Positions 2,625 to 62,624 of a DNA stretch of 64,000 nt are shown piece after piece. The stretch covers positions 5,622 through 69,621 of the forward strand of contig CAYFNT010000011.1 of the NCBI GenBank assembly GCA_964344565.1, in the 5' to 3' direction. Numbering within the stretch: position 1 is the stretch's first letter; each line of letters opens with the position of its first letter. A program made the position numbers and the translations under genes. The stretch comes from an uncultured bacterium. Lineage in GTDB: Bacteria; Krumholzibacteriota; Krumholzibacteriia; JACNKJ01. The notes beneath the pieces are model-generated. The model did not search any database and had not been told where the DNA came from. It was given only the letters and a program-made list of their open reading frames with translations.

Positions 2625-3191
2625 CTATTCCTCGGGCTCCTGGCCGGCCCGCTGGCTCCAGTAGTAGATGGCCTCGGCGAACTCGCGGGCCGTGTACTCG
2701 CAGAAGGTGCCGCCGGGTTTCTCCAGGAGATTGCGGGCCATGGTGAGGGGGTTCATGGGCTCGTCCTTCACCGGGCTGGCCACGATGGCCACGATCTCCC
2801 AGTCGAAGTCCCCCGAACGTTCGCCAGCATTCTCTTCCAGCGCCGCGGCGCTGTAGAGCACCACGTCGGCGAATCGGGCGGCCTCGGCTTCGCCGTCCGC
2901 GGTCACGCGGATGTGGGCGTCCTCTTTGGCCTGCCGATTCTCCAGTCGCGCGAAAAGCCGCGTGTTGCTTTTCACCAGAACGGTGGCGCAGGCGAACTGC
3001 TCGGGCGGGCAGGGCACGAGCACGACCTTGTCGAGATCCTCGCGCCCCGCGCCGGGACGGCGGCGTTCCCAGTTGCGTGCCACCAGATCCACGAGCTCAT
3101 CGTCGCTGCCTCGGAAGAAGCTGCGCCCCTGACCGGGACGGCACCTGTTCCGCGCGAAGTCGCTCCAGCCGATCCTGGGAGTGCCGGTCAT
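2625..3191 (-). CDS. Hypothetical protein (188 aa), last gene of the exo-patatin operon
   Basis: Clean ORF. Its start ATG overlaps the patatin stop by 4 nt (ATGA). No family recognised. Confidence 0.6.
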   Translation of the reverse strand: MTGTPRIGWSDFARNRCRPGQGRSFFRGSDDELVDLVARNWERRRPGAGREDLDKVVLVPCPPEQFACATVLVKSNTRLFARLENRQAKEDAHIRVTADGEAEAARFADVVLYSAAALEENAGERSGDFDWEIVAIVASPVKDEPMNPLTMARNLLEKPGGTFCEYTAREFAEAIYYWSQRAGQEPEE

Positions 3192-4102
3192 GCCGTCTTG
3201 CCGAGGATGGCTCGGCGGAAGCGCTGGCCGATGCCCTTGTGCCGCCGCATGGCCCGGCGCAGTTCAGGCAGGGCTTCACGCGCGGCGAGCTGGCCCTGCT
3301 TCCGGATCTCCGGCGCCGCGCTCATGTTGGCCCAGTGGAACTGACCGACCTGGGGCGTGATCACGAAGTCTGCCATCTTCAACACGAACTTGTTGAGGCG
3401 GTTGCGCGCGATGGCGTCGCTGCGCATGACGATGTCGAGGCCCCGATCGAATCCCGCCAGATCCTTTTCGAAGGTGGGGATGTCCACCGCCAGCACGAAG
3501 TCCGCGCCGAGATTGCGGCAGTCGCTCACCGGCACCCGGTAGCTGCCGCCGCCGTCGGTGAGCAGCTTGCCCTCGTGGGCGATGGGAGGGAAGACGCCCG
3601 GAATGGCGCTGCTGGCGTAGATGGCTTCGGTGAGTGGACCATCCTTGAAGACCACGTGGTCGCCGCTGATGAGGTCGACGGCGATGGAGGCAAAGGGGAT
3701 CTCGAGTTCCTCGAAGCGCGTGTCGCCGAGCAGTTCGGCCAGGGGCTCCATGAGCTTGTCCGAGCCTCGCTGGGCCGGCGAGGTGAAGGTCTTGAAGGTG
3801 AGGACCTTCCGCTCGATGGACCTTCGGAATTCCTTGAAGAAGCTGCTGTCCTCTCCGAACTCGTCGTCTTCCACGAAGGGCGCCCAGACTTCCTTGAAGT
3901 CGGGGTTTTCCCAATAGCTGCGAAGTCGTTCGTCCACGACGTCCGCGTCGATGTGCTTGGCGTAGAGCGCTCCCACGATGGAGCCCATGCTCGTGCCGGT
4001 GATGCAGTAGGGGCGCAGTCCCTCCTCTTCCAGAACCTCGAGCACTCCCACATGGGCGAGCCCGCGCGCGCCGCCGCTTCCCAACGCCAGTCCGAAATGC
4101 AT
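3188..4102 (-). CDS. Patatin-like phospholipase
   Basis: True start is MHFGLALGSGGARG (oxyanion GGxR/K) at 4100-4102, not the R-rich upstream extension of the track ORF. GTSMG nucleophile motif (GxSxG) and DGG catalytic Asp motif are present. Confidence 0.85.
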   Translation of the reverse strand: MHFGLALGSGGARGLAHVGVLEVLEEEGLRPYCITGTSMGSIVGALYAKHIDADVVDERLRSYWENPDFKEVWAPFVEDDEFGEDSSFFKEFRRSIERKVLTFKTFTSPAQRGSDKLMEPLAELLGDTRFEELEIPFASIAVDLISGDHVVFKDGPLTEAIYASSAIPGVFPPIAHEGKLLTDGGGSYRVPVSDCRNLGADFVLAVDIPTFEKDLAGFDRGLDIVMRSDAIARNRLNKFVLKMADFVITPQVGQFHWANMSAAPEIRKQGQLAAREALPELRRAMRRHKGIGQRFRRAILGKTA

Positions 4103-7913: not shown

Positions 7914-7962
7914 GAACTGTGAACTGAGAACTGAGAACTATGAACTGAGAACTGAGAACTTC
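7914..7962. repeat. Heptamer tandem array (7 units: GAACTGT GAACTGA GAACTGA GAACTAT GAACTGA GAACTGA GAACTTC); left arm of an inverted pair
   Basis: Read directly from sequence. It is the inverted complement of the array at 8413..8461. Confidence 0.9.
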
Positions 7963-8030
7963 AAGATTGGGCGAGCTGGCCCATCTTTGGCTGAGTAACA
8001 AGAAGCCATTAATTGGGAGAGCCGACTTAA

Positions 8031-8399
8031 ATGAGGAATTACAAAGAGTATCCGGTCTGGCAACAGTCGTTGGAACTCGTGGAATGTGTCTACAGGGTAA
8101 GCGAGTCCATGCCCCGAAAGGAAACCTTCGGGATTCAAAGCCAGATCCGGAGGGCAGCCGTATCCATATCTGCAAACCTCGCTGAAGGAGCCGGGAGGGA
8201 TACAGAGTCAGAGTTTCGGCGCTTCATCGACATTGCCTTGGGATCGATCAACGAGGTGGAGACGCTGACCCTGATAGCAGGAAAACTCGGGTACTTTGGT
8301 CTGGAGCAGGTTGATCAGCTAAATCGAGTGCTCGTCGAGGTGCGAAAGCAGCTTATCGGTCTGCACAAGAGATTGCGGCCAAAACGAAAGGCGAGCTAA
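8031..8399 (+). CDS. Four-helix-bundle protein of the 23S rRNA intervening-sequence (IVS) / DGR Avd-like family
   Basis: YKEYPVWQQSLELVECVYRVSESMPRKETFGIQSQIRRAAVSISANLAEGAGRDTESEFRRFIDIALGSINEVETL closely matches the TIGR02436/PF05635 consensus (...DLxVWQKAxxLxxxIYxxTxxFPKEExYGLxSQIRRAAVSIxSNIAEG...). Bounded by inverted heptamer arrays. Confidence 0.85.
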   Translation: MRNYKEYPVWQQSLELVECVYRVSESMPRKETFGIQSQIRRAAVSISANLAEGAGRDTESEFRRFIDIALGSINEVETLTLIAGKLGYFGLEQVDQLNRVLVEVRKQLIGLHKRLRPKRKAS

Positions 8400-8412
8400 G
8401 AGCTCGCCCTCC

Positions 8413-8461
8413 TGAGTTCAAAGTTCACAGTTCTCAGTTCACAGTTCACAGTTCACAGTTC
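8413..8461. repeat. Heptamer tandem array, right arm; reverse complement reads GAACTGT x3, GAACTGA, GAACTGT, GAACTTT, GAACTCA
   Basis: Read directly from sequence. About 43/49 identity to the revcomp of 7914..7962. Overlaps the acyl-CoA dehydrogenase stop codon by 9 nt. Confidence 0.9.
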
Positions 8462-9670
8462 AGCAAGATCCACTTCTCGCTGCACCTCGTTGGGGATGTA
8501 CTCCTCGAGATGCTTCAGATCCCGCGCTCCCTTGAGCACGTGGCGGGCGGTGACCATGCGCTGCACCTGGTTGGTGCCCTCGTAGATCTGGGTGATCTTC
8601 GCGTCGCGCATGTACTTCTCGATGGGATAGTCCTTCATGAAGCCGTAGCCGCCGAAGATCTGCACCGCGTCGGTGCTCACGCTCATGGCCGTGTCGGTGG
8701 CGAAGAGCTTGGCCTGGGCGGCCAGCTTGCTGATGTTGCTCGCGCCCATGTCGATGTTGCGGGCCGCGGCGTAGACCAGGTAGCGGGCCGCCTCCACCCG
8801 GGCGCTCATGTCGGCGAGCATGCCCTGGATCATCTGGAAGCTGCCGATGCTCTGGCCGAACTGCTTGCGCCGGTTGGCGTAGACCGCGGCGTAGTCCAGA
8901 GCGCCCTGGGCGAGCCCGACGCCCTGGCCGGCCACGCCGGGACGGGCGCGGTCGAGGGTCATCATGGCCTGCTTGAATCCCTGGCCCGTCTTGCCGCCGA
9001 GAAGGCGATCCTCGGGCACCTCGCAATTCTCGAAGTCGAGTTCCACCACGGGCACCGCCCGGATGCCCATCTTATCCTCGATCTTGGCGATGGAGAATCC
9101 GGGATCGCCCTTCTCCACGATGAAGCCCGAGATGCGCGAGCGCTGGCTCTCCGGGTCGGTCACCGCGTAGACCGTGTAGATCTCGGCGATACCTCCGTTG
9201 GTGGTCCACTTTTTCTCACCGTTGATGGTCCAGCCGCCGGCGCTCTTCTCGGCCCGCGTGCGGAGACTGCCCGCGTCACTTCCAGCGAACTTCTCGCTGA
9301 GCCCGAAGGCGATGAGCTTCTCGCCACGGGCGATCTGCGGCAGGTAGTGCTTCTTCTGCTCCTCCGTGCCCGAGAGGATGATGGGGAAGCTGCCCAGGGC
9401 GTTCACCGCGAAGGCCACGCCGATGCCGCCGCAGGCCTTGCTGAGCTCTTCGGTGACCAGGCAGAGATCCAGTACGCCGGCGCCCTCGCCGCCGTATTCC
9501 TTGGGGATCCAGACGCCCAGGAGTCCGGCCTCGGCCATGGCGTCCTTCACCTCCCAGGGATACTCCTGCATCTCGTCGTACTTCGCGGCCAGGGGCCTGA
9601 CCACCTTCTCGGCGATCTCGCGGGCCTTGTCTCTCCACTTCAGGTTCTCTTCGGTAAGGAAGGGCGTCAT
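8453..9670 (-). CDS. Acyl-CoA dehydrogenase
   Basis: 405 aa. ...EYGGEG...GSDAGSL...KKWTTNG...YEGTNQVQRMVTAR is canonical ACAD. Carries a ~25-aa C-terminal tail that ends inside the heptamer array. Confidence 0.9.
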   Translation of the reverse strand: MTPFLTEENLKWRDKAREIAEKVVRPLAAKYDEMQEYPWEVKDAMAEAGLLGVWIPKEYGGEGAGVLDLCLVTEELSKACGGIGVAFAVNALGSFPIILSGTEEQKKHYLPQIARGEKLIAFGLSEKFAGSDAGSLRTRAEKSAGGWTINGEKKWTTNGGIAEIYTVYAVTDPESQRSRISGFIVEKGDPGFSIAKIEDKMGIRAVPVVELDFENCEVPEDRLLGGKTGQGFKQAMMTLDRARPGVAGQGVGLAQGALDYAAVYANRRKQFGQSIGSFQMIQGMLADMSARVEAARYLVYAAARNIDMGASNISKLAAQAKLFATDTAMSVSTDAVQIFGGYGFMKDYPIEKYMRDAKITQIYEGTNQVQRMVTARHVLKGARDLKHLEEYIPNEVQREVDLAEL

Positions 9671-14630: not shown

Positions 14631-14768
14631 CGCATACGACAGCACTTGGTCACGTCAATGACACCTGCAGAAGTTTAAACTTCAACGATCTCCGTCACGG
14701 TCGGCGCGGTCGGGTGTAAGCTTAGGGACAGCCGGTCAATGTTGAATTCGCCAGTGGGAGGGCGCGAG

Positions 14769-16064
14769 ATGAAGCCGATGCGACTGATCAAAGCGGGAAT
14801 CTGCCTGATGCTGCTGATCGCCGGAAACGCACTCGCCCAGGGAGCGCCCGACATCATCTGGCAAAGGGACGATCACAGCGCCAGCGTGCGGGGCGTGGCC
14901 TTCACCTCGGATGACCAGCATGTCATCTCGGGAGCGGACCTCGGCGATAGCACATTCCGGCTCTGGGCCGCGGGCGACGGCGCTCCCGCCGGCGAGTTCT
15001 CGCTGGCGCCCCACGCGGTCATCTCGGTCGCCCACGTTCCCGGCAGCGATTGGGTGGCCGTGGGATACATCGTGTCCGGATATCCCCCGGGCGGCGTGTC
15101 GGCGGTCTGGGATCTGGAGACCGGCCAGGAGCGATTCACTTCGGGCGGCTGCTTCGTGGACGTATCCGCCGACGGAATGCTGCTAGCCTCGGGCGGCGGC
15201 GGAGTGAACCGCTACGTTTCCATCTGCCGCCTGTCCGACGGCCAGGAACTCCATTCCATCTACACCGGCGCCTACATCCACGACCTGGCCTTCGCGCCCG
15301 ACGGCAGCATGGTGGCGACGGCCGGGGGCGACAATGCCGTGAAGTTCTGGGACGTCGAAAGCGGAACCCTGATTCGAAGCATCTCGGCTCACGACGATGA
15401 CGTCAGCGCCCTGGCCTTCTCTTCCGACGGTGCCATTCTGGCCAGCGGCGCGGGGGGCTGGGACGGCAGCGACGATTCCTCCATCAAACTCTGGAACGTG
15501 GCCGAGGGCACCCTGATCGACACCTTCGAAGGCCACGGCGATTGGGTCTATGCTCTCGACTTCTCCCCCGACGGAGGCATCCTGCTGTCCTCGGGGCGCG
15601 ACGGTTCCCAGGGCGACATCAGGTTTTGGAGCGTCGCTAGCGGCGAACTGATGCGCTGGTACTCGGCCTCCGCCTACGATCTAGAATTCTCCTCGGACGG
15701 TTCGACATTCGCCTACGGCAGCGCCTTCAGCGAGGTGGTCCTCGCCGCCAATCCGCTGATGCCGACCTCGGCGGCGGACTTCCTGCCAAGCTCCCTCGCC
15801 CTGCGGGCCTCGCCCAATCCCATGCGCGGCAGCACGCGGCTGAACTTCAACCTGCCCACGGCCTCGGCCTTGCGATTGAGCATCCACGATGTGAGCGGCC
15901 GCAAAGTTGCGGAGCTGTTCGATGGTCGCCGCGAGGTTGGAGATCATCATCTAGATTGGGACGGCCGCGACGCCGCCGGCCGTGTCCTGGTTCCCGGTGT
16001 CTACTTCGCGCGCCTGTTCGACGGTCGCTCGGTGACTTCGAGCAAACTGGTCCTGTTGCGATAA
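14769..16064 (+). CDS. Secreted WD40/beta-propeller repeat protein with T9SS/FlgD-Ig-like C-terminal sorting domain
   Basis: Start at MKPMRLIKAGICLMLLIAGNALA. Repeated ...DxxVxxxAFSxDGxxLASG... WD-like units. C-terminus ASPNPMRGSTRLNFNLP...SIHDVSGRKVAELFDG...WDGRDAAGRVLVPGVYFARL. Confidence 0.8.
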   Translation: MKPMRLIKAGICLMLLIAGNALAQGAPDIIWQRDDHSASVRGVAFTSDDQHVISGADLGDSTFRLWAAGDGAPAGEFSLAPHAVISVAHVPGSDWVAVGYIVSGYPPGGVSAVWDLETGQERFTSGGCFVDVSADGMLLASGGGGVNRYVSICRLSDGQELHSIYTGAYIHDLAFAPDGSMVATAGGDNAVKFWDVESGTLIRSISAHDDDVSALAFSSDGAILASGAGGWDGSDDSSIKLWNVAEGTLIDTFEGHGDWVYALDFSPDGGILLSSGRDGSQGDIRFWSVASGELMRWYSASAYDLEFSSDGSTFAYGSAFSEVVLAANPLMPTSAADFLPSSLALRASPNPMRGSTRLNFNLPTASALRLSIHDVSGRKVAELFDGRREVGDHHLDWDGRDAAGRVLVPGVYFARLFDGRSVTSSKLVLLR

Positions 16065-16090
16065 ACTTTCGGGACAGGCCTGAAAGAAAA

Positions 16091-16112
16091 CCCCCGGCCC
16101 TCGCCGGGGGAT
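16091..16112. terminator. Bidirectional hairpin terminator CCCCCGGC-cctc-GCCGGGGG flanked by an A-run and a T-rich tract
   Basis: Lies between convergent genes, immediately before the heptamer array. Confidence 0.5.
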
Positions 16113-16115
16113 TAT

Positions 16116-16220
16116 CTGGTGACTGGAGACTGGTGACTGGAGACTGGCGACTGGAGACTGTCGCCTGGCGACTGGCGACTGGTGACTGGAGACTGGCGAC
16201 TGGAGACTGTCGCCTGTCGC
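16116..16220. repeat. 15-unit heptamer tandem array, GACTGGN family, with a duplicated 35-bp higher-order block
   Basis: gactgga gactggt gactgga gactggc gactgga gactgtc gcctggc gactggc gactggt gactgga gactggc gactgga gactgtc gcctgtc. Ends exactly at the stop codon (16221-16223) of the minus-strand gene. Confidence 0.9.
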
Positions 16221-17327
16221 CTATTCCCCCAACAGCGCCCGCCTGATCGACCCGTCCAGCATGCCCGGCATGGATGCGTACTTCATGAAGGCGCCCTTGC
16301 CCGCGTCCCAGAAAAACTGGTCCATGCGGAACATCTCCTTGGCGCTGCGCACCTGGATCTCGTCGCCGTCCAGGTAGATGAGCACCTCGATGGGAAAGGC
16401 GCAGACGTGATCGAGGCCCGGCGAGCGCCAGTCGCCCTCGGCGCGCTTCATGCCGGCGATGTGCATGGCTAGGGCTTCGGTGCGCGGCCGCGTGATGCCC
16501 AGCAGGATGGCCTTGCCCGGCACCTCCTTGCGCGCGGCGAGCTTCCACTTGAGATCCGCGTCAGGATCGGGAGTCCAGCGGTATTTCAGATCCTTTCCAT
16601 CGGGAGTGAAGGCCGCCAGGTTCGCGGTGATGCGATCGGCCAGCGCGTTCATCTGCAGGGTGGCGTCGTCCACGACGGCTTCGGAATGGAGGAGGGGGAA
16701 CTGACCCTCGCTGCGGAAGTAGGTCATGGGTCCGACCATCATGAACATGTCCTTCTTGCCTTCGCGCAGACGGTCCCGATCGCGAAGGGGAGGCATGGGC
16801 TCGTTCGCGGTGGGCTTGCCGAATGCGCTGCTTACCCGGTCCCGAATCCTTCCGGCCAGGGCCGCGGCCTGGCCCGCCATGGCGGCGTAGAGGGTCTCGT
16901 CCTCCAGATCGTTGCCCACGATACGGGCCAGTGTTTCCGGCTGCAGCATGGTGATCCGGAGGCCCCCCGGTTCCTCGCTCAGACCCAGGCGCATCATGCC
17001 GGCGGCCGCGTACTTGGGATGCAGATCCGCGAGAGCGTTCAGGTAGGCTTCGTCGATGAAGACGATCAGATAGCCGCGCCGGCCGTCCCGATCGCCTGCG
17101 TCCTCCCGCACGTGGTCGGGGGGCGTCACCGGCCCCCGATGGAGGAGTTCGAATCCCTCGTCGTACTCCAAGGCTTCGCTGAGGGTCAGCACGGCCGCTT
17201 CCAGGGTCATGCCCTCCGGAGCGAAGCCGAGATTCTCGTAGATGCCGTAGAGAGGCCCGTCCGCCAGGGCGGCGAAAGCGAAAATCATGAAAACCATGGC
17301 GAGGCGCACGATCATGATGTCCTCCAT
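16221..17327 (-). CDS. Hypothetical secreted protein
   Basis: 368 aa. N-terminal signal peptide (MIVRLAMVFMIFAFAALA). Coding-like composition; no family recognised. Confidence 0.6.
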   Translation of the reverse strand: MEDIMIVRLAMVFMIFAFAALADGPLYGIYENLGFAPEGMTLEAAVLTLSEALEYDEGFELLHRGPVTPPDHVREDAGDRDGRRGYLIVFIDEAYLNALADLHPKYAAAGMMRLGLSEEPGGLRITMLQPETLARIVGNDLEDETLYAAMAGQAAALAGRIRDRVSSAFGKPTANEPMPPLRDRDRLREGKKDMFMMVGPMTYFRSEGQFPLLHSEAVVDDATLQMNALADRITANLAAFTPDGKDLKYRWTPDPDADLKWKLAARKEVPGKAILLGITRPRTEALAMHIAGMKRAEGDWRSPGLDHVCAFPIEVLIYLDGDEIQVRSAKEMFRMDQFFWDAGKGAFMKYASMPGMLDGSIRRALLGE

Positions 17328-44474: not shown

Positions 44475-44957
44475 ATGTCAGGACTTTCTCACATGGATGA
44501 GCGTGGTCGAGCCCGCATGGTGGATGTGGGAGGCAAGAAAATCAGCGCCCGCAAGGCAGTCGCCTCCGGTCGCGTGGAACTGGGGGAGGCGGCCTTCGAG
44601 GCCCTTCGGGAGAACCGCGCCGGCAAGGGCGACGCGCTCTCGGTGGCCCAGGTGGCCGGCATTCTCGCCGCGAAGAGGACCGGCGAATTGATCCCGCTCT
44701 GTCATCCACTGCCGCTCACCCATGTGGGCGTGGAGTTCGAACTGCTCGAGGACGATCGTGCCGTGCGAATCGTCGCCTCGGCGGCCTGCGAAGGGGTCAC
44801 GGGCGTGGAGATGGAAGCGCTCACGGCGGTGAGTGTGGCCGCGCTCACCCTCTACGACATGCTCAAGGCCCTGGACAAGGGTATCCGCATCGCCGAGGTG
44901 CAGCTGCTCGAGAAGTCCGGTGGCAAGAGCGGACACTGGAAGCGGGAGGGCGCATGA
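44475..44957 (+). CDS. moaC: Cyclic pyranopterin monophosphate synthase accessory protein
   Basis: MVDVGGK...LSVAQVAGILAAKRTGELIPLCHPLPL...EALTAVSVAALTLYDMLKA. Confidence 0.85.
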   Translation: MSGLSHMDERGRARMVDVGGKKISARKAVASGRVELGEAAFEALRENRAGKGDALSVAQVAGILAAKRTGELIPLCHPLPLTHVGVEFELLEDDRAVRIVASAACEGVTGVEMEALTAVSVAALTLYDMLKALDKGIRIAEVQLLEKSGGKSGHWKREGA

Positions 44958-46186
44958 AGGGGCCGTCCAAGGTCTTCGTGAGCGTGGCCGAGGCGCTTTC
45001 GCTCATCGAATCCCGGCTTCCCGCCCCCACGCGGGAGCGGATCGCAGTGCCGGATGCGGCCGGCCGCGTGCTGGCCGAGGAGATCAGCTCGCCGGAGCCC
45101 CTTCCCGCCTTTTCCAACAGCGCCATGGACGGCTACGCCCTTCGGGCCGTCGACGTCGCCGGCGCCCAGCCCGAGACGCCCGTGGACCTGCCCCTCGCCG
45201 GCGAGATCGCCGCGGGAGAAGTGCCGCCGGCGGACTGGCCCGCGGGCACTTGCCTGCGCATCCTCACCGGCGCGCCGGCGCCCGAAGGGGCCGACGGCGT
45301 GGTGCCGGTGGAATCCACCGAGGAGTTGGATGGCGCCATTCGCTTCTACGCCGACCTCGACGCGACGGGCAGCAACATCAGGCCCGCCGGCGAGGACGTG
45401 AGGGCCGGCGACCGTCTGCTCGCGCCCGGCCATCTGATTCGTCCGGCCGAGATCGCACTTCTCGCAGCTCTGGGAATCCTGGAAATCGAGGTGACGCGCA
45501 AACCCCGCGTGGGTTTTATGGCCACCGGCGACGAGTTGCTGTCCCCGGGCGAAACGCCTCGCCCCGGCGCCATCCGGAACAGCAACACGCCCATGATTCT
45601 CTCCCTGCTCGCGGATCTCGGACTGGAGGGCGTGGATCTCGGCGTGGCGCCCGACGACGAGGCCGGCCTGCGAACCAAACTGGAACCCGCGCTCGCCGAC
45701 TGCGACCTGCTCATCAGTTCCGGGGGCGTTTCGGCGGGCCGATACGATCTGGTGGGGAAGGTGCTCGAGGACCTCGGCGCCGAATGGGTCTTCCACAAGA
45801 TCGCCCAGCAGCCGGGCAAGCCCCTGGCCTTCATGACCTGGCGCGGCAAGCCCATTTTCGGACTGCCCGGCAATCCCGTATCGGGATTCTTCACCTTCTG
45901 GTACTACGCTGCGCCCGCAATCCGGAAGATGATGGGCCTGACCGACGCCCATCCGCGGCACGTCATCGCGCGCCTCAAAGGCGAAATCGCCGGAAAGCCG
46001 AAGAAGGCCTTCTTCGGGCGCGCGCAAACGACGTGGGTGGGAGATCACTACGAAACCGAACCGCGGCCGCCCCACGGAAGCCACGTATTGAGCAGCCTGA
46101 CCCGGGCCAACAGCTTCATCATTCTGGAACCGGGAACGGGACAGCTTGGCAGCGGCGACCCGATTCGCGTGGCGCTCCTGGACTGA
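44954..46186 (+). CDS. moeA: Molybdopterin molybdenumtransferase
   Basis: ...PAFSNSAMDGYALR..., ...GDELL.PG...IRNSN..., ...ISSGGVSAGRYD..., ...GLPGNPVS... Overlaps moaC by 4 nt. Confidence 0.85.
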   Translation: MKGPSKVFVSVAEALSLIESRLPAPTRERIAVPDAAGRVLAEEISSPEPLPAFSNSAMDGYALRAVDVAGAQPETPVDLPLAGEIAAGEVPPADWPAGTCLRILTGAPAPEGADGVVPVESTEELDGAIRFYADLDATGSNIRPAGEDVRAGDRLLAPGHLIRPAEIALLAALGILEIEVTRKPRVGFMATGDELLSPGETPRPGAIRNSNTPMILSLLADLGLEGVDLGVAPDDEAGLRTKLEPALADCDLLISSGGVSAGRYDLVGKVLEDLGAEWVFHKIAQQPGKPLAFMTWRGKPIFGLPGNPVSGFFTFWYYAAPAIRKMMGLTDAHPRHVIARLKGEIAGKPKKAFFGRAQTTWVGDHYETEPRPPHGSHVLSSLTRANSFIILEPGTGQLGSGDPIRVALLD

Positions 46187-46190
46187 TGCC

Positions 46191-46302
46191 TGGAGCCTGG
46201 CGACTGGCGACTGTAGACTGGAGACCGGAGACTGGAGCCTGGCGACTGGCGACTGTAGACTGGAGACCGGAGACCGGAGACTGGAGCCTGGAGACTGTAG
46301 AC
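46191..46302. repeat. 16-unit heptamer tandem array (TGGAGAC/TGGCGAC/TGTAGAC/CGGAGAC, the same GACTGGN family as 16116..16220) with a ~49-bp higher-order duplication
   Basis: Fills the whole gap between the moeA stop (46184-46186) and the DUF4230 stop (46302-46304). Confidence 0.9.
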
Positions 46303-46997
46303 TACTCCTCCAGCTCCCCCAAGGGCACCTCGCTGAGCACCGGCACGGGCTCCTCCGCGTCGAAGTCCACGGCCAGCCTTTCGACGCCGTAACCGCGGGC
46401 GATGAGCTCGAGGGTCTGCCTCGCCGATTCCTCGACCTTGGAGCGCAGGGCCCTGGCCTGATCCACGGCGAGCACGTGCACGTCCTCCTTGGCGCGCTCC
46501 TTCAGCTGGTTCTTCACCTTCACGTCGAAGCGGTCGCCCAGAACCTTGCTCAAGAGCCCGGGCAGCGCCCAGCTGAGCAGTTCGCCCTGCTGTTCGTCGT
46601 AGAAGGACAGGTCGCGCAGGCGGATCTCCGGCTTCACCGGCGGCATGCTGATGCGATGCAGACCCGCCTCCTCGCGTATGCCGAAGGCCGGATCGCGCAG
46701 ATCGTATCGGAAGTCCACTTCGAACTCGAAAATCATGACCATCTTCTTGGGGCCGAGCAGCCAGCTCCAGTACTTCTCGCCGGATTCGCCGAAACGATGG
46801 TCCTCGGCGCTCACGATCTCCTTGGCCAGGATGCGAAACACCGACAGCTCGCCGATGGACTGCATCTGCTTGATCTGCCGACCGATGCTCACGCGGGCCT
46901 CCCGCGGCGTCTTGCCCCGCCGGCTCATCCGCCAGAGGACGCCGAAGGCCGCCGCGACGACGAGCCCGAATATCAGTCCGAATCCAAATCCGCTCAT
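46302..46997 (-). CDS. DUF4230-like membrane-anchored protein
   Basis: N-terminal TM MSGFGFGLIFGLVVAAAFGVLW, then a pattern consistent with DUF4230 (...ELSVFRILAKEIV...FEVDFRYDL...). Confidence 0.6.
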   Translation of the reverse strand: MSGFGFGLIFGLVVAAAFGVLWRMSRRGKTPREARVSIGRQIKQMQSIGELSVFRILAKEIVSAEDHRFGESGEKYWSWLLGPKKMVMIFEFEVDFRYDLRDPAFGIREEAGLHRISMPPVKPEIRLRDLSFYDEQQGELLSWALPGLLSKVLGDRFDVKVKNQLKERAKEDVHVLAVDQARALRSKVEESARQTLELIARGYGVERLAVDFDAEEPVPVLSEVPLGELEE

Positions 46998-47004
46998 GGT
47001 TCTC

Positions 47005-48732
47005 CTAGGCAGGCTCCGGCATTTCGCCGATCTGCCGCAATTCGCGTTCGGCCCTCAAACGTTTCAGGGAAAGTACGGCCTCGGCGATGAGCCAGAGGTC
47101 GAGCAACAGGATGGCCACACCCGTTCCCACCAGCGGCCAGCTCACGGGATCGCTTCGCAGGAACTGCCAGAGGCTGTAGGGCAGCGCCGCCAGGGTGATG
47201 GCCATCATGAAGAGCATGGGAAGCAGGAAGTAGAGGATGGGCTTGCCCGCCCGATAGAAGTAGAGGGTCATCACCAGAAAGCCGAGGGCTCCCAGCAATT
47301 GATTCGTGATGCCGAATAGCGCCCAGAGGGTGATGCCCGCGGGCTTGCCGCCCACCTTGATCAGTGCGAAATAGCCGATGGCCAGCACGGCCAGAATGCC
47401 CGCGCCGTAGCGATTCCTGGTGATCCACCCCAGAGGCGCGAAGTGGCTGCCCAGTTCCTCGAGATTGTAGCGCAGCAGGCGGGTGCCCGAATCGAGGGTG
47501 GTCATGGCGAAACCCACGGCCACCACGGCAATGAAGATGCCGGCGAGGGCGGGGTCCAGGCCCAACTTGGCCGTGAAGCTGGCGCCGCCCTCCACGAAGG
47601 CCTTGAGCTTGGCGCCCAGGCTGCCCGCCCCGGCCCAGCTTGAGTAGTGCTGATTCCACTGGGCTCTGGTGGCGAAACCGGCCGTGGTGGCCAATATGGC
47701 GAGCACCGCGAGCAGGCCCTCGGTGAGCATGGCGCCGTAGCTCACGAAGAGCGAGTCTCGCTCGCTGGCCAGCTGCTTGGCCGTGGTGCCGCTGGACACC
47801 AGCGAGTGGAATCCGCTGATGGCGCCGCAGGCGATGGTGATGAAGAGGAAGGGAAAGAGCGGCGGCAGATCGGCAGGCGCGCTGTTGAGCGCCGGCGCGA
47901 CGATCTCCGGCCGGGTGACCACCAGCCCCGCGTAGAGCAGGCCCATGCCCAGGTAGAGCTGGAAGCTGTTCAGGTAGTCACGCGGCTGAAGCAGAAGCCA
48001 GACCGGCAGCACCGAAGCGATGAGCGCGTAGCCCATGAGGATCCAGACCCAGCGGTCCACGGTGAGTTCCATGCCGAAGAGTGCGGTGACCGGGTGTCCC
48101 GCGCCGTACCAGGTGGCCAAGAGCATGAGCGCTACGCCGATGAGGGTGGCGGGGGTGAGACCCACCCGGAAACGATAGACCAGGCTGCCGATGATCATGG
48201 CGATGGCGATGAGGCTCCAGACGGGAATCACCGCCTCGGGATAGAAGTTCAGGGGTCCGCTGCGGATGAACAGAAGGCTGATCACGTAGGCGAATGCGCC
48301 CATGGCCAGGGCGATGAGGAAGAAGATCAGCAGCAGAAAGAGCGTGCGTCCGCGAGGACCCAGTAGATCGCCGGTGATGTCGCCGATGGAGCGTCCCTGG
48401 TGTCTGAGCGAGATGTAGAGCGCTGCGAGATCATGCACCGCGCCCATGAAGATGCTTCCGAAAATCACCCAGAGCAGGGCGGGGAGCCATCCCCAGATGA
48501 CCGCGATGGCGGGGCCGAGGATGGGGCCGAGGCCGGCGATGCTCGCGAAGTGGTGCCCGAAGAGCACTGCCTTGTGGCTGGGCACGTAGTCGATGCCGTC
48601 ACGCTTCTCCTGGGCGGGCGTGGGTCGATCGGGAATGAACCCCAAGACCTTCGATCCCAGGCGTTTGCCGTAGGTGAAGTAGGCGGCCAGATAGGCGAAG
48701 AAGGCGAGGACGGCGATGAGGAGTGCGGACAT
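47005..48732 (-). CDS. cstA: Carbon starvation protein A (peptide/pyruvate transporter family)
   Basis: 575 aa, polytopic. ...HHFASIAGLGPILGPAIAVIWGWLPALLW... and ...CGAISGFHSLVSSGTTAKQL... match the CstA family. Confidence 0.9.
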   Translation of the reverse strand: MSALLIAVLAFFAYLAAYFTYGKRLGSKVLGFIPDRPTPAQEKRDGIDYVPSHKAVLFGHHFASIAGLGPILGPAIAVIWGWLPALLWVIFGSIFMGAVHDLAALYISLRHQGRSIGDITGDLLGPRGRTLFLLLIFFLIALAMGAFAYVISLLFIRSGPLNFYPEAVIPVWSLIAIAMIIGSLVYRFRVGLTPATLIGVALMLLATWYGAGHPVTALFGMELTVDRWVWILMGYALIASVLPVWLLLQPRDYLNSFQLYLGMGLLYAGLVVTRPEIVAPALNSAPADLPPLFPFLFITIACGAISGFHSLVSSGTTAKQLASERDSLFVSYGAMLTEGLLAVLAILATTAGFATRAQWNQHYSSWAGAGSLGAKLKAFVEGGASFTAKLGLDPALAGIFIAVVAVGFAMTTLDSGTRLLRYNLEELGSHFAPLGWITRNRYGAGILAVLAIGYFALIKVGGKPAGITLWALFGITNQLLGALGFLVMTLYFYRAGKPILYFLLPMLFMMAITLAALPYSLWQFLRSDPVSWPLVGTGVAILLLDLWLIAEAVLSLKRLRAERELRQIGEMPEPA

Positions 48733-54144: not shown

Positions 54145-54238
54145 GGATCGTCCTTAGGGATTCGAGTCCTGGGGCCGGGCAGGCTTAGATTAGGGCAGCG
54201 AGGTCGGGAAATCAAGCCCTGCCCTTCACCACCCCCCG

Positions 54239-54307
54239 GCCTCGGGCAGCGAGCCTCGGGCTGTGGGCCTCGGGCCCCGGGCCTCGGGCTGCGGCCTCGG
54301 GCCACGA
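54239..54307. repeat. Five tandem copies of a 14-bp unit GCCTCGGGC+N5 in a divergent promoter region
   Basis: gcctcgggcagcga gcctcgggctgtgg gcctcgggccccgg gcctcgggctgcg gcctcgggccacga. Confidence 0.85.
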
Positions 54308-54364
54308 GCACCTTGCCTAGTGCCCCGGGCTTCACTAGACTCGGCGGGTCTTGAAAGGAGTCCC

Positions 54365-55231
54365 GTGAAATTCACCGTCGCCATGGCGCAGATCGATCCG
54401 GCCCTGGGTCTGCCCGAACAGAACCTCGAGCTTCACCGGCAGCGGGCCGACGCGGCCCTGTCCGAAGGCGCCGAGTTGCTCATCTTCCCCGAACTCAGTC
54501 TCACGGGATACCTGGTCAAGGACATGGTGCCCGACCTGGCCCTGGCGCCGGAGGATCCATTCCTCGCGCCCCTCTACGAGCTGTCAGGCAAGCTCGATCT
54601 GGTCTTCGGATTCGTGGAGGATCTGCCCGGCGGCAACCACTGCAACAGCCTCGCCTGGCTGTCCGGCGGGAAACTCCTGCATGTGCACCGCAAGCTCTAC
54701 CTGCCCACCTACGGCATGTTCGAGGAGGGCCGCTACTTCGCCCGCGGCCAGCGCATGCAGGCCTTCGAGACCCGTTTCGGACGCATGGCCATGGCCGTCT
54801 GCGAGGATCTCTGGCATCCCTCGGTGCCCTACCTGGCCTACCTCGACGGCGCCCTGGGACTCGTGGTGGGATCGGCCAGTCCCACCCGCGGGGTGGAGGA
54901 GGGGCCGCTGCCGCCCAACGCCGAGTTCTGGCGGCGTCTCCTCGAGCATGACGCTTCCCTCTACGGCGGCTTCCTGGCCTTCGCCAACCGCTTCGGCGTG
55001 GAGGACGGCATCAACTACTGGGGCGGCAGCCGGCTCGTCGGCCCTTCCGGAGAGACCCTGGCCGAAGGCCCACTCCACGAGGAAGCCCTGGTCGTCGGCG
55101 AGATGGACATGTCGGCCCTGCGCCGCCGCCGGGACGAGTTCTCGCTCCTGCGCGACGAGAATCCCGAACTCACCTTCCGCAATCTCGAACGCATCCTGCG
55201 CGAACGGGCCGGGACGGAGGACGAGTCGTGA
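54365..55231 (+). CDS. Carbon-nitrogen hydrolase (nitrilase superfamily); probable glutaminase subunit of NAD synthetase
   Basis: GTG start after aaaggag. ...[12 protein letters not shown]..., ...[10 protein letters not shown]... (catalytic Cys). Overlaps nadE by 4 nt. Confidence 0.8.
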
Positions 55232-59728: not shown

Positions 59729-60442
59729 ATGTACCAGGCCACACTCATCATTGACGCCGATGCCGGTGTCCTCGCCCTTCGCGAGGACACCCACGTCGCC
59801 AATGAGCTCGCCCTCCGCGCCTGGAAGGAATGGAAGGAATCCGGTTCCTGCTCCTCGGCCTTCGAGACCCTCGACATGGACATGGTGGACGACTACATCC
59901 GCAGCCAGTCCGTGGATCCCTACTTCCTCGATTTCTACGACTTCGTTTCCGAGCGGAAGATCCTCTTCGGCGTGGCCACCCAGAGGCTGGGGCGCATCGT
60001 CGAGACCATCCTTCGCCGCGAGGGCATGAACGGCGTGCCCGTCTTCGCCAACAAGCTGGACGTGGAGCCCTTCACCATCCGCCTGAGCTTTCCCCACTAC
60101 AAGGTGCTGGGCTGCGATCTCTGTCCGAGCTGCAACGTCTACCACCTGCGCCGATTCCGCCGTCCCGACGCGCCTCTCATCTTCGTGGGCGACAAGGAAC
60201 ACGACTTCTGCAGCTGCGTCGAGGCCGACCTGGCCTTCGCGCGGAACGGCCTGCATCGGAAGCTCGAAAGAGAGGGCGTTGAGCACATCCACTTCGAGCA
60301 TCTCCGCGACGTGGAGCGCACCCTCATGAACATGATCATGTCGGGGGAGTTGGCCGAACTTCCGCGCAAGGAGATCGAACTGCTCAGTCCGCCGCCCGTC
60401 GATGCAGATGGGAAGCTGCGCGGGCCAGAATCTCGTAGTTGA
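59729..60442 (+). CDS. HAD-IB family hydrolase, MtnX-like (2-hydroxy-3-keto-5-methylthiopentenyl-1-phosphate phosphatase-like) with Cys cluster
   Basis: LIIDADAGV (DxD), ...CDLCPSCN..., ...IFVGDKEHDFCSCVEADLAFAR... resembles MtnX. The 3' end overlaps convergent alr by ~58 nt. Confidence 0.55.
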   Translation: MYQATLIIDADAGVLALREDTHVANELALRAWKEWKESGSCSSAFETLDMDMVDDYIRSQSVDPYFLDFYDFVSERKILFGVATQRLGRIVETILRREGMNGVPVFANKLDVEPFTIRLSFPHYKVLGCDLCPSCNVYHLRRFRRPDAPLIFVGDKEHDFCSCVEADLAFARNGLHRKLEREGVEHIHFEHLRDVERTLMNMIMSGELAELPRKEIELLSPPPVDADGKLRGPESRS

Positions 60443-61526
60443 TGGTTCCCGCCAGGCCCGCCAGGGTCTCGGCGCTGATCTCCTCGCCATCCTGTCCGCC
60501 GATCAGCACGGCTTCGTCGCCGCGACGGGCCTCGGGTATGTGGCTGAGGTCCACGAGGGTGAGGTTCATCATCACCCGGCCGCGGATGGGAGCGCGCTTG
60601 CCGCGCACCAGGGCCCAGGCGCCGCCGAGTCCGCGATCGTAGCCGTCGGAGTAACCCACCGGCAGCACGCCGATGCGGGTCGGCGCTTCGGTCTTCCAGC
60701 TGCAGCCGTAGCCCACGTAGCTGCCCGCGGGCAGATCCTTCACCTGGATGATCCGCGCCTTCCAGGTCATCACCGGTTTCAGATCCAGATTGTTGCGCCC
60801 CTCGGCCCGCGCGCTCACGAGGGTTTCGCGGCTGGGCCAGTGTCCGTAGAGCGAGATGCCCACGCGCAGCAGGTCGCCCCGGGTATCGGGGAAGAGGATG
60901 CCGGCCGCCGAACAGGACTGGTGCAGCATCTCCGGCCGCAGCCCACCGTCCCCGAGTCGAGTCACCGCCGCCTCGAATCGACGCATCTGCTCGAGGGCGT
61001 AGCTGTGATCGGTGGTATCTTCGATGTTGGCGAAATGGCTGTGCACGCCTTCCACGCGGATGTGCTCGCAGCCGCTCGCCCGGGCGGCGAGTTCGTCGAG
61101 ACTCTCTTCGGGGAATCCCTGCCGATTGACGCCTGTCTCGACCTTGAGGTGGATGGGAATCCGGGCCCCGAGCTCCGAGCCCCGGGCCTCGAGTTCGTCG
61201 AGGCCCTCGAAATCGAAGACGGTGAATCGCGCGCCGGCCTCGAGGAGTTCGGGGAGCATCTCGGGCGGCGACCAGGACAGGATCAGCGTCTTCAGGTCAT
61301 GATCCGGATTCGAATCGGCAAGGGCCAGCGCCTCTTCGGGGGAGTGCACGCCGAACCATCGCTGCCCTTCTTCCGCGAGTATGCGCGAGACCTCGGCCAG
61401 TCCGTGCCCGTAGGCGTTGGCCTTGAGCACGGGCAGCAATTCGGCCGGCCCGGCCAGGTCCTTGAAGATGCGGTAGTTGTTCAGAAGGCTGGATCGCGAG
61501 ATCTCGATCCAGGTGGCTCTATTCAT
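60384..61526 (-). CDS. alr: Alanine racemase
   Basis: True start MNRATWIEIS at 61524-61526. VLKANAYGHG (PLP Lys), ...GISLYGHW..., ...VMMNLTLVDL... The upstream 327 codons of the track ORF are antisense to dusB. Confidence 0.9.
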   Translation of the reverse strand: MNRATWIEISRSSLLNNYRIFKDLAGPAELLPVLKANAYGHGLAEVSRILAEEGQRWFGVHSPEEALALADSNPDHDLKTLILSWSPPEMLPELLEAGARFTVFDFEGLDELEARGSELGARIPIHLKVETGVNRQGFPEESLDELAARASGCEHIRVEGVHSHFANIEDTTDHSYALEQMRRFEAAVTRLGDGGLRPEMLHQSCSAAGILFPDTRGDLLRVGISLYGHWPSRETLVSARAEGRNNLDLKPVMTWKARIIQVKDLPAGSYVGYGCSWKTEAPTRIGVLPVGYSDGYDRGLGGAWALVRGKRAPIRGRVMMNLTLVDLSHIPEARRGDEAVLIGGQDGEEISAETLAGLAGTINYEILARAASHLHRRAAD

Positions 61527-61622
61527 GGGGCTCCGCCTGGCTTGCTTCCCTTTCGCCGCGAGAGTATAGTGCTCGAACCCGCGCGGGAAAACGACTATCT
61601 CGCGCCATCCTACGAAGAGCCC

Positions 61623-62624
61623 ATGAACGGATTCCCGGATAAGCAAGGGCGCATCGACGCTCTCAGAAGCCTGCTCCGCGGCGGCGGCGCCGCCTGTGCG
61701 CCCATGGCGGGCATCACCGATCGCCCCTTCCGGCGCATCTGCCGGCGCATGGGATCCCTCTACGTGACCACCGAACTGCTCTCCAGCGAAGGCTGGAGCC
61801 GGGGCAGCGAGAAGACCCTGAAGATGGCCTCCTTCGGCGAGGAGGAGCGGCCCCTGGGCATCCAGCTCTTCGGCGCCGATCCGTCTGCCATGGCCGAGTC
61901 CGCCCGGTGTGCGGCGGAGCTCGGTCCCGACTTCATCGACATCAATTTCGGCTGTCCCGTGAAGAAGATCGTCAAGAGCGGCGGCGGTTCGGCCTGCATG
62001 AAGGATCTGCCCCTCATGGAGGACATCGTGCGCGCGGTGGACGAGGCGGTGGACCTGCCCGTCAGCATGAAGATCCGCGCGGGATGGGACGAGCATCACC
62101 TCAACGCGCCGGAGGCCGCGGTCATGGCCGAGCGCGTGGGCCTGGCCTTCGTGACCGTGCACGGCCGCAGCCGGACACAGTTCTTCAAGGGACTGGCCGA
62201 CCTGGGCATCATCCGCGAGACTCGCGAGGCGGTGGACATTCCCATCGTGGGCAACGGCGACGTGGTCGACGCGGCCAGTTACGCGCGCATGATCGAGGAG
62301 ACCGGCGTGGACACGGTGCTCGTGGGCCGCGGCTGCATCGGCAATCCCTGGATCTTCGGCGAGATAGAGGCCTATCGTCGGGGCGAGAGCTGGAGCCCGC
62401 CGGGCTTCGGAGAGCGCATCCACCTGGTGGTGGAGCATCTGGCCGCCAAGGTCGAGATGTTCGGCGAGAAGCGCGCGGTGGTGGAATTCCGCAAACAGGT
62501 GAGCCAATACCTCAAGGGACTGCCCGGCGCGGCGGAACTTCGCGCCAGGCTGTTCATCGAAGAGACCTTCGCCGCCGTGGAGGGCATCCTGCTCGACTGG
62601 CTGGCGCGGCAGGAGGGTCCATGA
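61623..62624 (+). CDS. dusB: tRNA-dihydrouridine synthase
   Basis: True start MNGFPDKQ. ...CAPMAGITDRPFRR..., ...IDINFGCPVKK..., ...VHGRSRTQ... Upstream part of the track ORF is antisense to alr. Confidence 0.85.
   Translation: MNGFPDKQGRIDALRSLLRGGGAACAPMAGITDRPFRRICRRMGSLYVTTELLSSEGWSRGSEKTLKMASFGEEERPLGIQLFGADPSAMAESARCAAELGPDFIDINFGCPVKKIVKSGGGSACMKDLPLMEDIVRAVDEAVDLPVSMKIRAGWDEHHLNAPEAAVMAERVGLAFVTVHGRSRTQFFKGLADLGIIRETREAVDIPIVGNGDVVDAASYARMIEETGVDTVLVGRGCIGNPWIFGEIEAYRRGESWSPPGFGERIHLVVEHLAAKVEMFGEKRAVVEFRKQVSQYLKGLPGAAELRARLFIEETFAAVEGILLDWLARQEGP

Follow-up and report, generated by a model that had tools for sequence, protein, structure and literature searches.

Heptanucleotide Repeat Arrays at Gene Ends and Around a PF05635 Gene in an Uncultured Krumholzibacteriota Bacterium

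Introduction

The heptanucleotide repeat STRR1, with the unit CCCCAGT, was reportedly described from Calothrix by Mazel in 1990. Heptamers are given as the most abundant class of long simple sequence repeats (SSRs) in bacteria, and polymerase slippage was proposed as their origin (Mrazek 2007, as quoted in PMC4679880). Described examples are the heptameric repeats GGGGA(C/T)T of Nostoc PCC 7120 and GGGAATC of Xanthomonas, which lie at most 50 bp from stop codons and vary in length among strains, with GGGGACT repeats forming G-quadruplexes (G4) in vitro (Rehm et al. 2015, PMC4692102). Here, we describe a 64,000-nt stretch (the window) of contig CAYFNT010000011.1 (assembly GCA_964344565.1) from an uncultured member of the Krumholzibacteriota, in which an array of GACTGGN heptamers (array 1) directly adjoins the stop codon of a minus-strand gene, a second array of the same unit family (array 2) fills another gap between stop codons, and a pair of inverted GAACTGW arrays flanks a gene of the PF05635 family. 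Our preferred reading, to which we assign a probability of roughly 0.7, is that array 1 is a heptanucleotide microsatellite of the type known as short tandemly repeated repetitive sequences (STRR) or long simple sequence repeats (LSSR), located in a 3′ untranslated region (3′UTR), grown in place by slippage, and neutral or selfish.

Heptamers have also been described in other settings. TAACTGA direct repeats occur in marine Beggiatoaceae, Cyanobacteria, and Bacteroidetes (MacGregor 2015, PMC4679880). These arrays share with those of the window a scattered spread across phyla and an overlap of gene ends, as the unit carries stop codons, and the window unit GAACTGA is one base from TAACTGA. The difference is that TAACTGA arrays comprise 2–6 copies located mostly 1 nt upstream of start codons, whereas the window arrays comprise 15–17 units located after stop codons. 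In Haemophilus influenzae, slippage alters the copy number of a 7-bp SSR upstream of hmw1A (PMC12721329, PMC8262952); that repeat is placed between the promoter and the start codon, where it modulates expression, whereas a change in length of the window arrays, which follow stop codons, alters neither frame nor promoter.

Two further systems bear on the paired arms of the window. In Coxiella burnetii, the 23S rRNA intervening sequence (IVS) contains two to three tandem GACAGAT heptamers in strain-variable number (Warrier 2016, PMC4990558), and RNase III cuts its terminal stem where the first heptamer repeat begins (PMC4990558). Like this S23p/PF05635 IVS, the window cassette (7914–8462) combines an open reading frame (ORF) of the same family with inverted repeats predicted to pair into a stem and with heptameric sub-repeats of variable number, and the arms of the Azospirillum 23S IVS, like those of the cassette, are fully heptameric. 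Unlike the 23S IVS, the cassette is located in a spacer between protein-coding genes, where RNase III cleavage may be supposed by analogy; unlike IVS arms, the solo arrays beginning at 16114 and 46187 possess neither an inverted partner nor an ORF. In the Nostoc tRNA-Leu(UAA) intron, the P6b stem-loop is built of the 7-nt repeat motifs TDNGATT and NNTGAGT (PMC4476775). There, as predicted for the paired arms of the window, inverted 7-nt repeats make an RNA stem of variable length, although this stem is part of a group I intron, uses other units, and is relevant to the paired arms and not to the solo arrays.

Assignment to Known Repeat Classes

The window arrays belong to the bacterial heptanucleotide SSRs. 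They consist of 7-nt units arranged head to tail beyond chance; they are noncoding and near ORF ends, bounded by a stop codon on one side and a stop codon or terminator on the other; and their copy number differs among strains or relatives (by 7 nt, by 42 nt, and as 2–3 versus 15 units). The initial annotation had regarded them as an unexplained repeat family, a description that gives way to membership in an already described one (PMC4692102, PMC4679880). As with the Nostoc and Xanthomonas heptamers, the units are mostly intergenic and near a stop codon, copy number is strain-variable, and the arrays are probably transcribed. GACTGGN is a rotation of the Nostoc unit GGGGACT at six of seven positions, and identical to it if N is G. 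In the window, the seventh base is A, T, or C and never G, so that, unlike in Nostoc, the units lack a G-run and a G-quadruplex is not plausible. Additional differences from both described families are the 42- and 49-nt higher-order blocks and the host, a genome of 65% GC that named homologs with 83–85% identity mark as probably Krumholzibacteria-like.

Other classes were considered and rejected. Membership in the G-quadruplex repeat class, which has a G-tract of three or more per unit and four or more consecutive units, is ruled out by a longest G run of two in GACTGG[A/T/C]. As the initial annotation had correctly stated, the period of 7 is not codon-based, and the contiguous direct units are neither a CRISPR array, given the lack of spacers, nor elements of the REP/BIME/REPIN type, given that the 7-nt unit is a direct tandem repeat and not palindromic. 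A phase-variable contingency locus is ruled out by the location of both arrays downstream of stop codons.

Anatomy of Array 1 and Its Position in a 3′UTR

The units of array 1 are GACTGGA, GACTGGT, and GACTGGC together with GACTGTC, GCCTGGC, and GCCTGTC, preceded by a degenerate ATCTGGT and ending in GCC|TA. The array is ordered ATCTGGT GACTGGA GACTGGT GACTGGA GACTGGC GACTGGA GACTGTC GCCTGGC and continues GACTGGC GACTGGT GACTGGA GACTGGC GACTGGA GACTGTC GCCTGTC GCC|TA. Tandem Repeats Finder (TRF) returned period 7 with 13.4 copies (16116–16209) and a 2.3-copy tail (16207–16222). With at most one mismatch, GACTGGNGACTGG was found 23 times in the window, always on the plus strand and always inside arrays 1 and 2, compared with 0.43 expected from shuffles, none of which (0/100) reached 23; the fifteen-unit, period-7 array of the initial annotation is therefore real. 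The same annotation had reported a duplicated 35-bp block. The duplication is real and exceeds that length: 40 nt recur exactly at 16128 and 16177, which amounts to approximately two copies of a higher-order block of 49 nt and seven units. The annotated palindrome GTCGCC-T-GGCGAC was recovered as described, and the 19-mer GCCTGGCGACTGGCGACTG is common to arrays 1 and 2. Rfam and tRNA scans of the 64-kb window found nothing.

The possibility of an assembly artefact, or of a G4 or i-motif element, was weighed here and appears extremely improbable. Two Logan contigs stop 34 nt into array 1, and the related GGGGACT repeats do form G4 in vitro (PMC4692102). The Logan break point, however, falls within the 40-nt exact repeat, which suggests repeat-induced assembly breaks, and the units contain GG only, with no GGG or GGGG. 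An independent European Nucleotide Archive (ENA) assembly, L214, contains the identical 156-nt gap with array 1 unchanged, and the array is thus not an artefact of a single assembly, the alternative that the initial annotation had raised.

Array 1 ends at 16220, and the minus-strand stop codon (CTA, TAG in sense) begins at 16221, an abutment given correctly in the initial annotation. The 368-aa product of this gene had no match in Pfam or NCBIfam. On the other side of the array, the terminator scan identified a sole terminator-like site, on the minus strand, with a stem running from 16110 to 16091 and the tail TTTTCTTTCA; the plus-strand sequence following the 16091–16110 hairpin is ATTATCTGG. 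An orthologous hairpin was found in relatives L217–L220. The sense order for the gene is consequently stop codon, array 1, hairpin, and U-tract, which places array 1 inside the 3′UTR, and the best explanation of this arrangement is that the array would be transcribed as (CCAGUCN)n. While the hairpin and the 3′-end location of the initial annotation were both borne out, its plus-strand reading, with the array following a terminator, was not: the hairpin terminates the minus-strand gene itself, and the array is upstream of it. Compared with shuffles, the RNA of the array 1 region has a better fold (z about −6), owing to the terminator hairpin and the GTCGCC/GGCGAC palindromes. An intrinsic terminator formed by the array itself was rejected, as the only site detected (16110–16082, minus strand) lies outside array 1 and none is present in the array 2 gap.

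The sister array announced in the initial annotation was confirmed at 46187–46304 with period 7 and 16.3 copies by TRF. Its higher-order block comprises 42 nt (6 units) in 2.7 copies and includes a 43-nt exact repeat. The final MoeA codons, CTG GAC TGA, are similar to an array unit, and the last unit of the array, GACTACT, holds the DUF4230 stop codon. A terminator scan of the array 2 gap revealed no terminator-like site, and neither strand of array 2 is significantly structured as RNA (z −0.5 and −0.7).

Length Variants and States at Orthologous Sites

Array 2 is exactly 42 nt shorter in three assemblies of the same strain (L001–L003: ENA ERZ930062 and ERZ930065; Logan ERR2281799) that have identical flanks and encode an identical DUF4230 protein, the difference corresponding to one higher-order block. 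Similarly, the right arm of the cassette in sample ERR2281807 is without exactly one 7-nt unit, in the midst of about 300 nt of 100% identical flank. Variation in multiples of 7 had been predicted in the initial annotation for a slippage region, and these two cases match it. The 40-nt and 43-nt exact internal repeats were counted as recent block duplications.

Orthologous sites in relatives offer a view of earlier states. At the array 1 site, a relative with 72% protein identity displays the stop codon followed by CAGGAAG TCGCCAG TCGCCAG AGAAAA and then the same hairpin and T-tract, and a relative with 80% protein identity displays the degenerate series TCGCGGG TCACGAG TGGCGAG before the hairpin. 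From these 2–3 units, we conclude that the proto-repeat is old at this site and grew to fifteen units in the lineage of the window. The history of array 2 is different. Comparison with L206 and L208–L212 established that the convergent MoeA/DUF4230 order is retained in relatives with 97%, 88%, and 84% identical DUF4230, with gaps of 10, −4 (overlapping stops), and 18 nt, respectively, and no array 2, which is therefore a recent gain. Because the gap measured −4 to 18 nt beforehand, array 2 now "exactly fills" it. The initial annotation had attached significance to an array that exactly fills a convergent gap; the geometry is accurate, and the exact fit is incidental given the former state of the array 2 gap and the gaps of all kinds occupied elsewhere.

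A separate observation concerns the genes beside the arrays. The WD40/FlgD_ig gene convergent to array 1 is missing from the orthologous, otherwise syntenic site in L217–L220, and the CstA gene (47005–48732) beside array 2 is missing from the corresponding site in L206 and L208, indicating recent gene gain in both array neighborhoods.

Spread Across Phyla and Bias to Gene Ends

One genome per species was scanned for exact matches to four GACTGGH units, which retrieved at least 120 loci. Those listed come from Acidobacteriota, Planctomycetota, Cyanobacteria, Bacteroidota, Chloroflexota, Actinomycetota, Verrucomicrobiota, Proteobacteria, Omnitrophota, Elusimicrobia, Firmicutes, and others, and many of them also possess period-7 arrays of other units. 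The position of arrays relative to genes was assessed for the 109 arrays with enough flanking sequence, using open frames of at least 120 codons and random placements as controls. A frame on the GACTGG strand ends at the 5′ edge of 31% of the arrays versus 5.3% of random placements, and a frame on the opposite strand, the layout seen in the window, ends at the 3′ edge of 12.8% versus 4.4%. GACTGGH arrays thus adjoin stop codons three to six times more often than controls.

Abutment to stop codons is a trait of the GACTGGH array family, and placement in convergent gaps is not: in other genomes, these arrays occupy gaps of all kinds. Among the heptamer repeats surveyed by Rehm et al., 16% are convergent and about 65–70% co-oriented (PMC4692102). 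The order of stop codon, array, and terminator was also considered as a general layout and discarded, as only 3/109 arrays have it.

These placements bear on whether the arrays could be functional 3′-end elements, acting through rut-like loading of Rho or through double-stranded RNA of convergent transcripts that is offered to RNase III. In minus sense, the composition of the arrays fits a rut-like site (40% C and 23–24% G); array 2 RNA lacks significant structure (z −0.5) in a gap without an intrinsic terminator; and both arrays begin at a stop codon. We nevertheless consider such a function improbable, since relatives get by without an array in gaps of −4 to 18 nt, a good intrinsic terminator directly after array 1 makes a Rho site redundant, and the G-rich strand is elsewhere more often the sense strand (31% versus 12.8%).

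Inverted pairs of heptamer arrays with spacers of 4–176 nt and no ORF were encountered in 14/120 of the GACTGGH loci listed (L008, L020, L021, L026, L027, L032, L051, L053, L077, L084, L086, L090, L099, and L123). These hairpins look like ORF-less IVS stem-loops. Other cargo between array pairs gave no Pfam matches.

A PF05635 Cassette with Heptameric Arms

The initial annotation had mentioned a GAACTGW pair at 7914–7960 and 8415–8462. Both arrays are present; what had been overlooked is that they are inverted relative to each other and form the arms around an ORF of the PF05635 family. The PDB relatives of the encoded protein are 2gsc and 2rld, and PADLOC returned no defense-system match for it. 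The third-position GC content of the ORF is 0.63 compared with about 0.85 in its neighbors, and local GC is about 50% compared with 65%. The predicted fold has the arms paired in a single long stem around the ORF (z −6.2). According to the Rfam scan, the cassette is not within rRNA; it sits in a spacer between protein-coding genes.

The gene order is retained, without the cassette, in relatives whose acyl-CoA dehydrogenase (ACAD) is 92% and 84% identical; their ACAD–GntR gaps measure 193 and 126 nt, respectively, versus 608 nt for the window. At the ACAD stop of the 92% relative, the sequence reads TGA|ACTTGAACTTGGACT, with a short proto-repeat at the otherwise empty site, and next comes a hairpin orthologous to that at 8390–8408 in the window, which locates the right arm of the window between the ACAD stop and the hairpin. 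The resulting order of stop, array, and hairpin is the same as for array 1. The ORF and left arm took the place of some 85 nt extending to the GntR −35 box. The terminator scan did not flag the ACAD hairpin (8380–8408), and its assignment as terminator-like therefore derives from reading of the sequence and from the orthologous hairpin in relative L221; the hairpin also appears in the minimum free energy fold. Two side observations concern this hairpin. Comparison of 8390–8408 with about 3245–3267 of L221 revealed a compensatory pair change (GGGCGGGCT...AGCCCGCCC versus GGGCGAGCT...AGCTCGCCC), and its loop holds the PF05635 stop codon, so that two convergent genes share one hairpin.

PF05635 Genes and Period-7 Arms Beyond the Window

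Three of the approximately 120 GACTGGH loci listed carry a PF05635 gene, in each case directly between GTGACTG ... CAGTCAC arrays, and one of these loci is between atpG and atpD. In Acidobacteriaceae, Saprospirales, and one cyanobacterium, GACTGGT/CCAGTCA arrays make up the arms of such cassettes. A metagenome scan with a PF05635 alignment yielded 80 loci, in which the share of bases in period-7 arrays is 10.2% within ±250 nt of the gene versus 0.39% elsewhere. A period-7 flanking array is present at 62/80 loci and a period-8 array at 9/80, with periods 4, 5, 6, 9, 10, and 11 essentially absent. Arrays are found on both sides at 29 loci (28 of the 80 and the window cassette), and the units on the two sides are reverse-complementary, with one mismatch or fewer, in 26/29. 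The arm unit varies by locus and includes GTGGAGA, TCGGAAG, GTGATAA, and GGTAAAT, among others. Of the 38 testable 5′ arms, 33 start at the end of an upstream frame, in the same orientation, of at least 100 codons; enrichment of stop codons in all three frames of the arms is modest (58% versus 42% expected). Comparison of the arm duplex energy in sense and antisense gave no evidence of strand-specific selection (38 versus 33 loci, p 0.6), and RNA and DNA roles of the paired arms are thus not separable by this test. A search for 23S motifs in the 80 loci found none.

PF05635 relatives were also retrieved from plasmids by tblastn, with 19 of 21 records being cyanobacterial (Nostoc, Calothrix, Anabaena, and others). 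Cyanobacteria such as these are the taxa of the first STRR heptamer descriptions. In Azospirillum lipoferum 4B, the PF05635 ORF is located within the 23S rRNA gene (Rfam large subunit model, 1716 bits), and the IVS arms read CAGAGGA CGGATGA CAGAGGA CGGAGGA and, inverted, TCCTCTG TCTTCTG TCATCCG. Period-7 inverted arms around PF05635 genes, within and outside rRNA, constitute a broader regularity that, as far as searched, is apparently undescribed: no paper stating a general association between PF05635 and heptamers was found in the literature searched, where IVS heptamers are mentioned only for Coxiella.

Two loci display features of their own. Plasmid 1 of Gemmatirosa kalamazoonensis (L229, about 830–1000 and 1345–1385) has arms of period 8 (GGGCAGGA / CTCCTGCC); with such arms at some PF05635 genes, the period is not absolutely fixed at 7. 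In a cyanobacterial metagenome-assembled genome (L083, about 2960–3000 and 3640–3680), an element of ~24 nt, GAAAA(A/C)ATAAAATTGATTACC, occurs twice at array junctions around a PF05635 gene and resembles a small dispersed insertion nested in heptamer arrays.

The association invites the proposal that the solo arrays of the window are relics, seeds, or landing pads of PF05635 (IVS-like) cassettes, and hence driven by an element and not by generic slippage. Several findings are in its favor: arrays of the GACTGGT/CCAGTCA type act as cassette arms elsewhere, PF05635 loci have period-7 flanks in 62/80 cases and, with arrays on both sides, reverse-complementary units in 26/29, the empty site of the 92% relative already has a proto-repeat at the ACAD stop, both window arrays adjoin a stop codon in 3′-arm orientation, and contigs with PF05635 carry solo arrays away from the gene over 0.39% of bases, far more than at random. 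We still judge the proposal unlikely for the window, where arrays 1 and 2 have no inverted partner or nearby PF05635 gene, the cassette uses a different unit (GAACTGW), and array 1 is traceable to expansion in place. Moreover, only 3 of about 120 GACTGGH loci listed contain the gene, and deletion of a cassette bounded by inverted arms would be expected to result in a hairpin and not a direct array.

By the features tested, the solo arrays are not PF05635/IVS arms, as all unit matches are on the plus strand with no reverse-complement similarity and only the 7914/8415 pair has an inverted partner. They do not enclose a PF05635 ORF, their flanks being occupied by the WD40 gene, the 368-aa protein gene, MoeA, and DUF4230, and the sole PF05635 gene of the window being that at 8031–8399. 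Nor is array 1 a fusion of left and right arms after cassette loss, its halves being direct and not inverted.

The PF05635 protein enters in another way if the arrays are multivalent binding sites, either for this protein as a pentamer or for some other RNA- or DNA-binding factor, that define a 3′UTR regulon. The strict period with its variable seventh base, the co-occurrence of gene and arrays in one genome, and the deposition of 2gsc and 2rld as five chains would all suit such a role, and for TAACTGA arrays a regulator acting post-transcriptionally was suggested by MacGregor (PMC4679880). Because the unit differs freely among PF05635 loci, and between the cassette and the solo arrays of the window, and because the arrays are not conserved in relatives, we regard binding of this kind as very unlikely.

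Origin of the Solo Arrays

The microsatellite reading connects the directly observed anatomy, copy-number variants, ancestral states, cross-phylum spread, gene-edge bias, and PF05635 association with a proposed course of events. Array 1 would have arisen in place from a proto-repeat of 2–3 units that is still present in relatives, with growth and shrinkage through replication slippage or unequal recombination involving single units (7 nt) as well as 42- and 49-nt blocks. Here, we infer slippage as the mechanism, following the proposal of Mrazek. Array 2 reflects recent acquisition of the same unit family by a convergent gap that formerly measured about 0–18 nt. Inverted pairs of heptamer arrays form the arms of PF05635 cassettes and are predicted to pair into a long stem, and these arms may be processed by RNase III outside rRNA as well, by extension from the Coxiella 23S IVS. 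Solo arrays would be tolerated in the sole noncoding space on offer and would not be required regulatory elements. Neither solo array is conserved in close relatives, and those at these two loci are therefore most likely neutral or selfish satellites.

Several points weigh against this account. Slippage alone leaves unexplained why the GACTGG unit and a shared 19-mer recur at two loci 30 kb apart and the unit in many phyla, and it does not explain the strict period of 7, with periods 4–6 and 9–11 essentially absent near PF05635. The strong abutment to stop codons could mean function and not tolerance, and the 2-unit TCGCCAG repeat kept at the orthologous site of the 72% relative could indicate constraint. 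Finally, the 42-nt variant of array 2 is not fully separable from assembly error at the assembly level.

Features of the Window

Coordinates of the arrays and the features around them are collected in Table 1. Two additional repeats were noted in the window. A GC-rich tandem array, GGCCTCG GGCTGCG, with a 14-nt period and about 5 copies (54237–54330), is in a spacer upstream of a plus-strand gene starting near 54263–54366, and no inverted partner of it was found. A period-7 run of CCGAGCC (61161–61193; 4.7 copies, 76% matches) is inside the plus-strand ORF 60402–62624 and may be either chance or an in-gene heptamer array.

Table 1. Positions of arrays, genes, and terminator-like hairpins in the 64,000-nt window
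Feature	Position	Strand	Remarks
Left (5′) arm of PF05635 cassette	7914–7960	+	(GAACTGW) x6.7; adjoins −35 box of GntR promoter
PF05635/TIGR02436 four-helix-bundle gene ("23S rRNA intervening-sequence protein")	8031–8399	+	E 8e-33
ACAD terminator-like hairpin	8380–8408	−	GGCGAGCT-CTT-AGCTCGCC then TTTCGTTTT; read from sequence
Right (3′) arm of PF05635 cassette	8415–8462	−	Inverted (GAACTGW)n, between ACAD stop (TGA within array) and ACAD hairpin
ACAD gene	8453–9670	−	Ends GAA CTG TGA, all array units
WD40/FlgD_ig gene, convergent	14739–16064	+	Not at orthologous position in relatives
Intrinsic terminator of minus-strand gene	16082–16110	−	Hairpin CCCCCGGCGAGGGCCGGGGG then TTTTCTTTCA
Array 1	16114–16220		15 heptamers, GACTGGN on + strand; read (NCCAGTC)n in minus-strand gene 3′UTR
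Minus-strand gene	16221–17327	−	368 aa; stop codon adjoins array 1
MoeA gene	44954–46186	+	Stop TGA 46184–46186
Array 2	46187–46304		Array 1 unit family; fills MoeA-stop to DUF4230-stop gap
DUF4230 gene	46302–46997	−	Stop CTA 46302–46304

Implications

Taken alone, array 1 is an ordinary, though unusually long, heptamer microsatellite of an uncultivated GC-rich bacterium. The wider interest is in the strict 7-nt period, combined with freely varying sequence, of the inverted arms of PF05635 genes in several phyla. A broader interpretation, which is tentative and in our estimate holds the smaller share of the probability, is that heptamer arrays, the solo ones included, are cis-acting ends or seeds of widespread PF05635-associated, IVS-like elements that, in many phyla, reside in transcribed spacers within protein-coding operons as well as in 23S rRNA. 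If true, inverted arrays would loop a small ORF out as an RNase III-cleavable stem, solo arrays would be sites where arms are built or cassettes land, and the origin of rRNA IVSs and the meaning of STRR heptamers would be one system. Should the link between PF05635 and heptamers prove general, it would provide handles on the origin and spread of IVSs and on the dominance of heptamers among bacterial long simple repeats.

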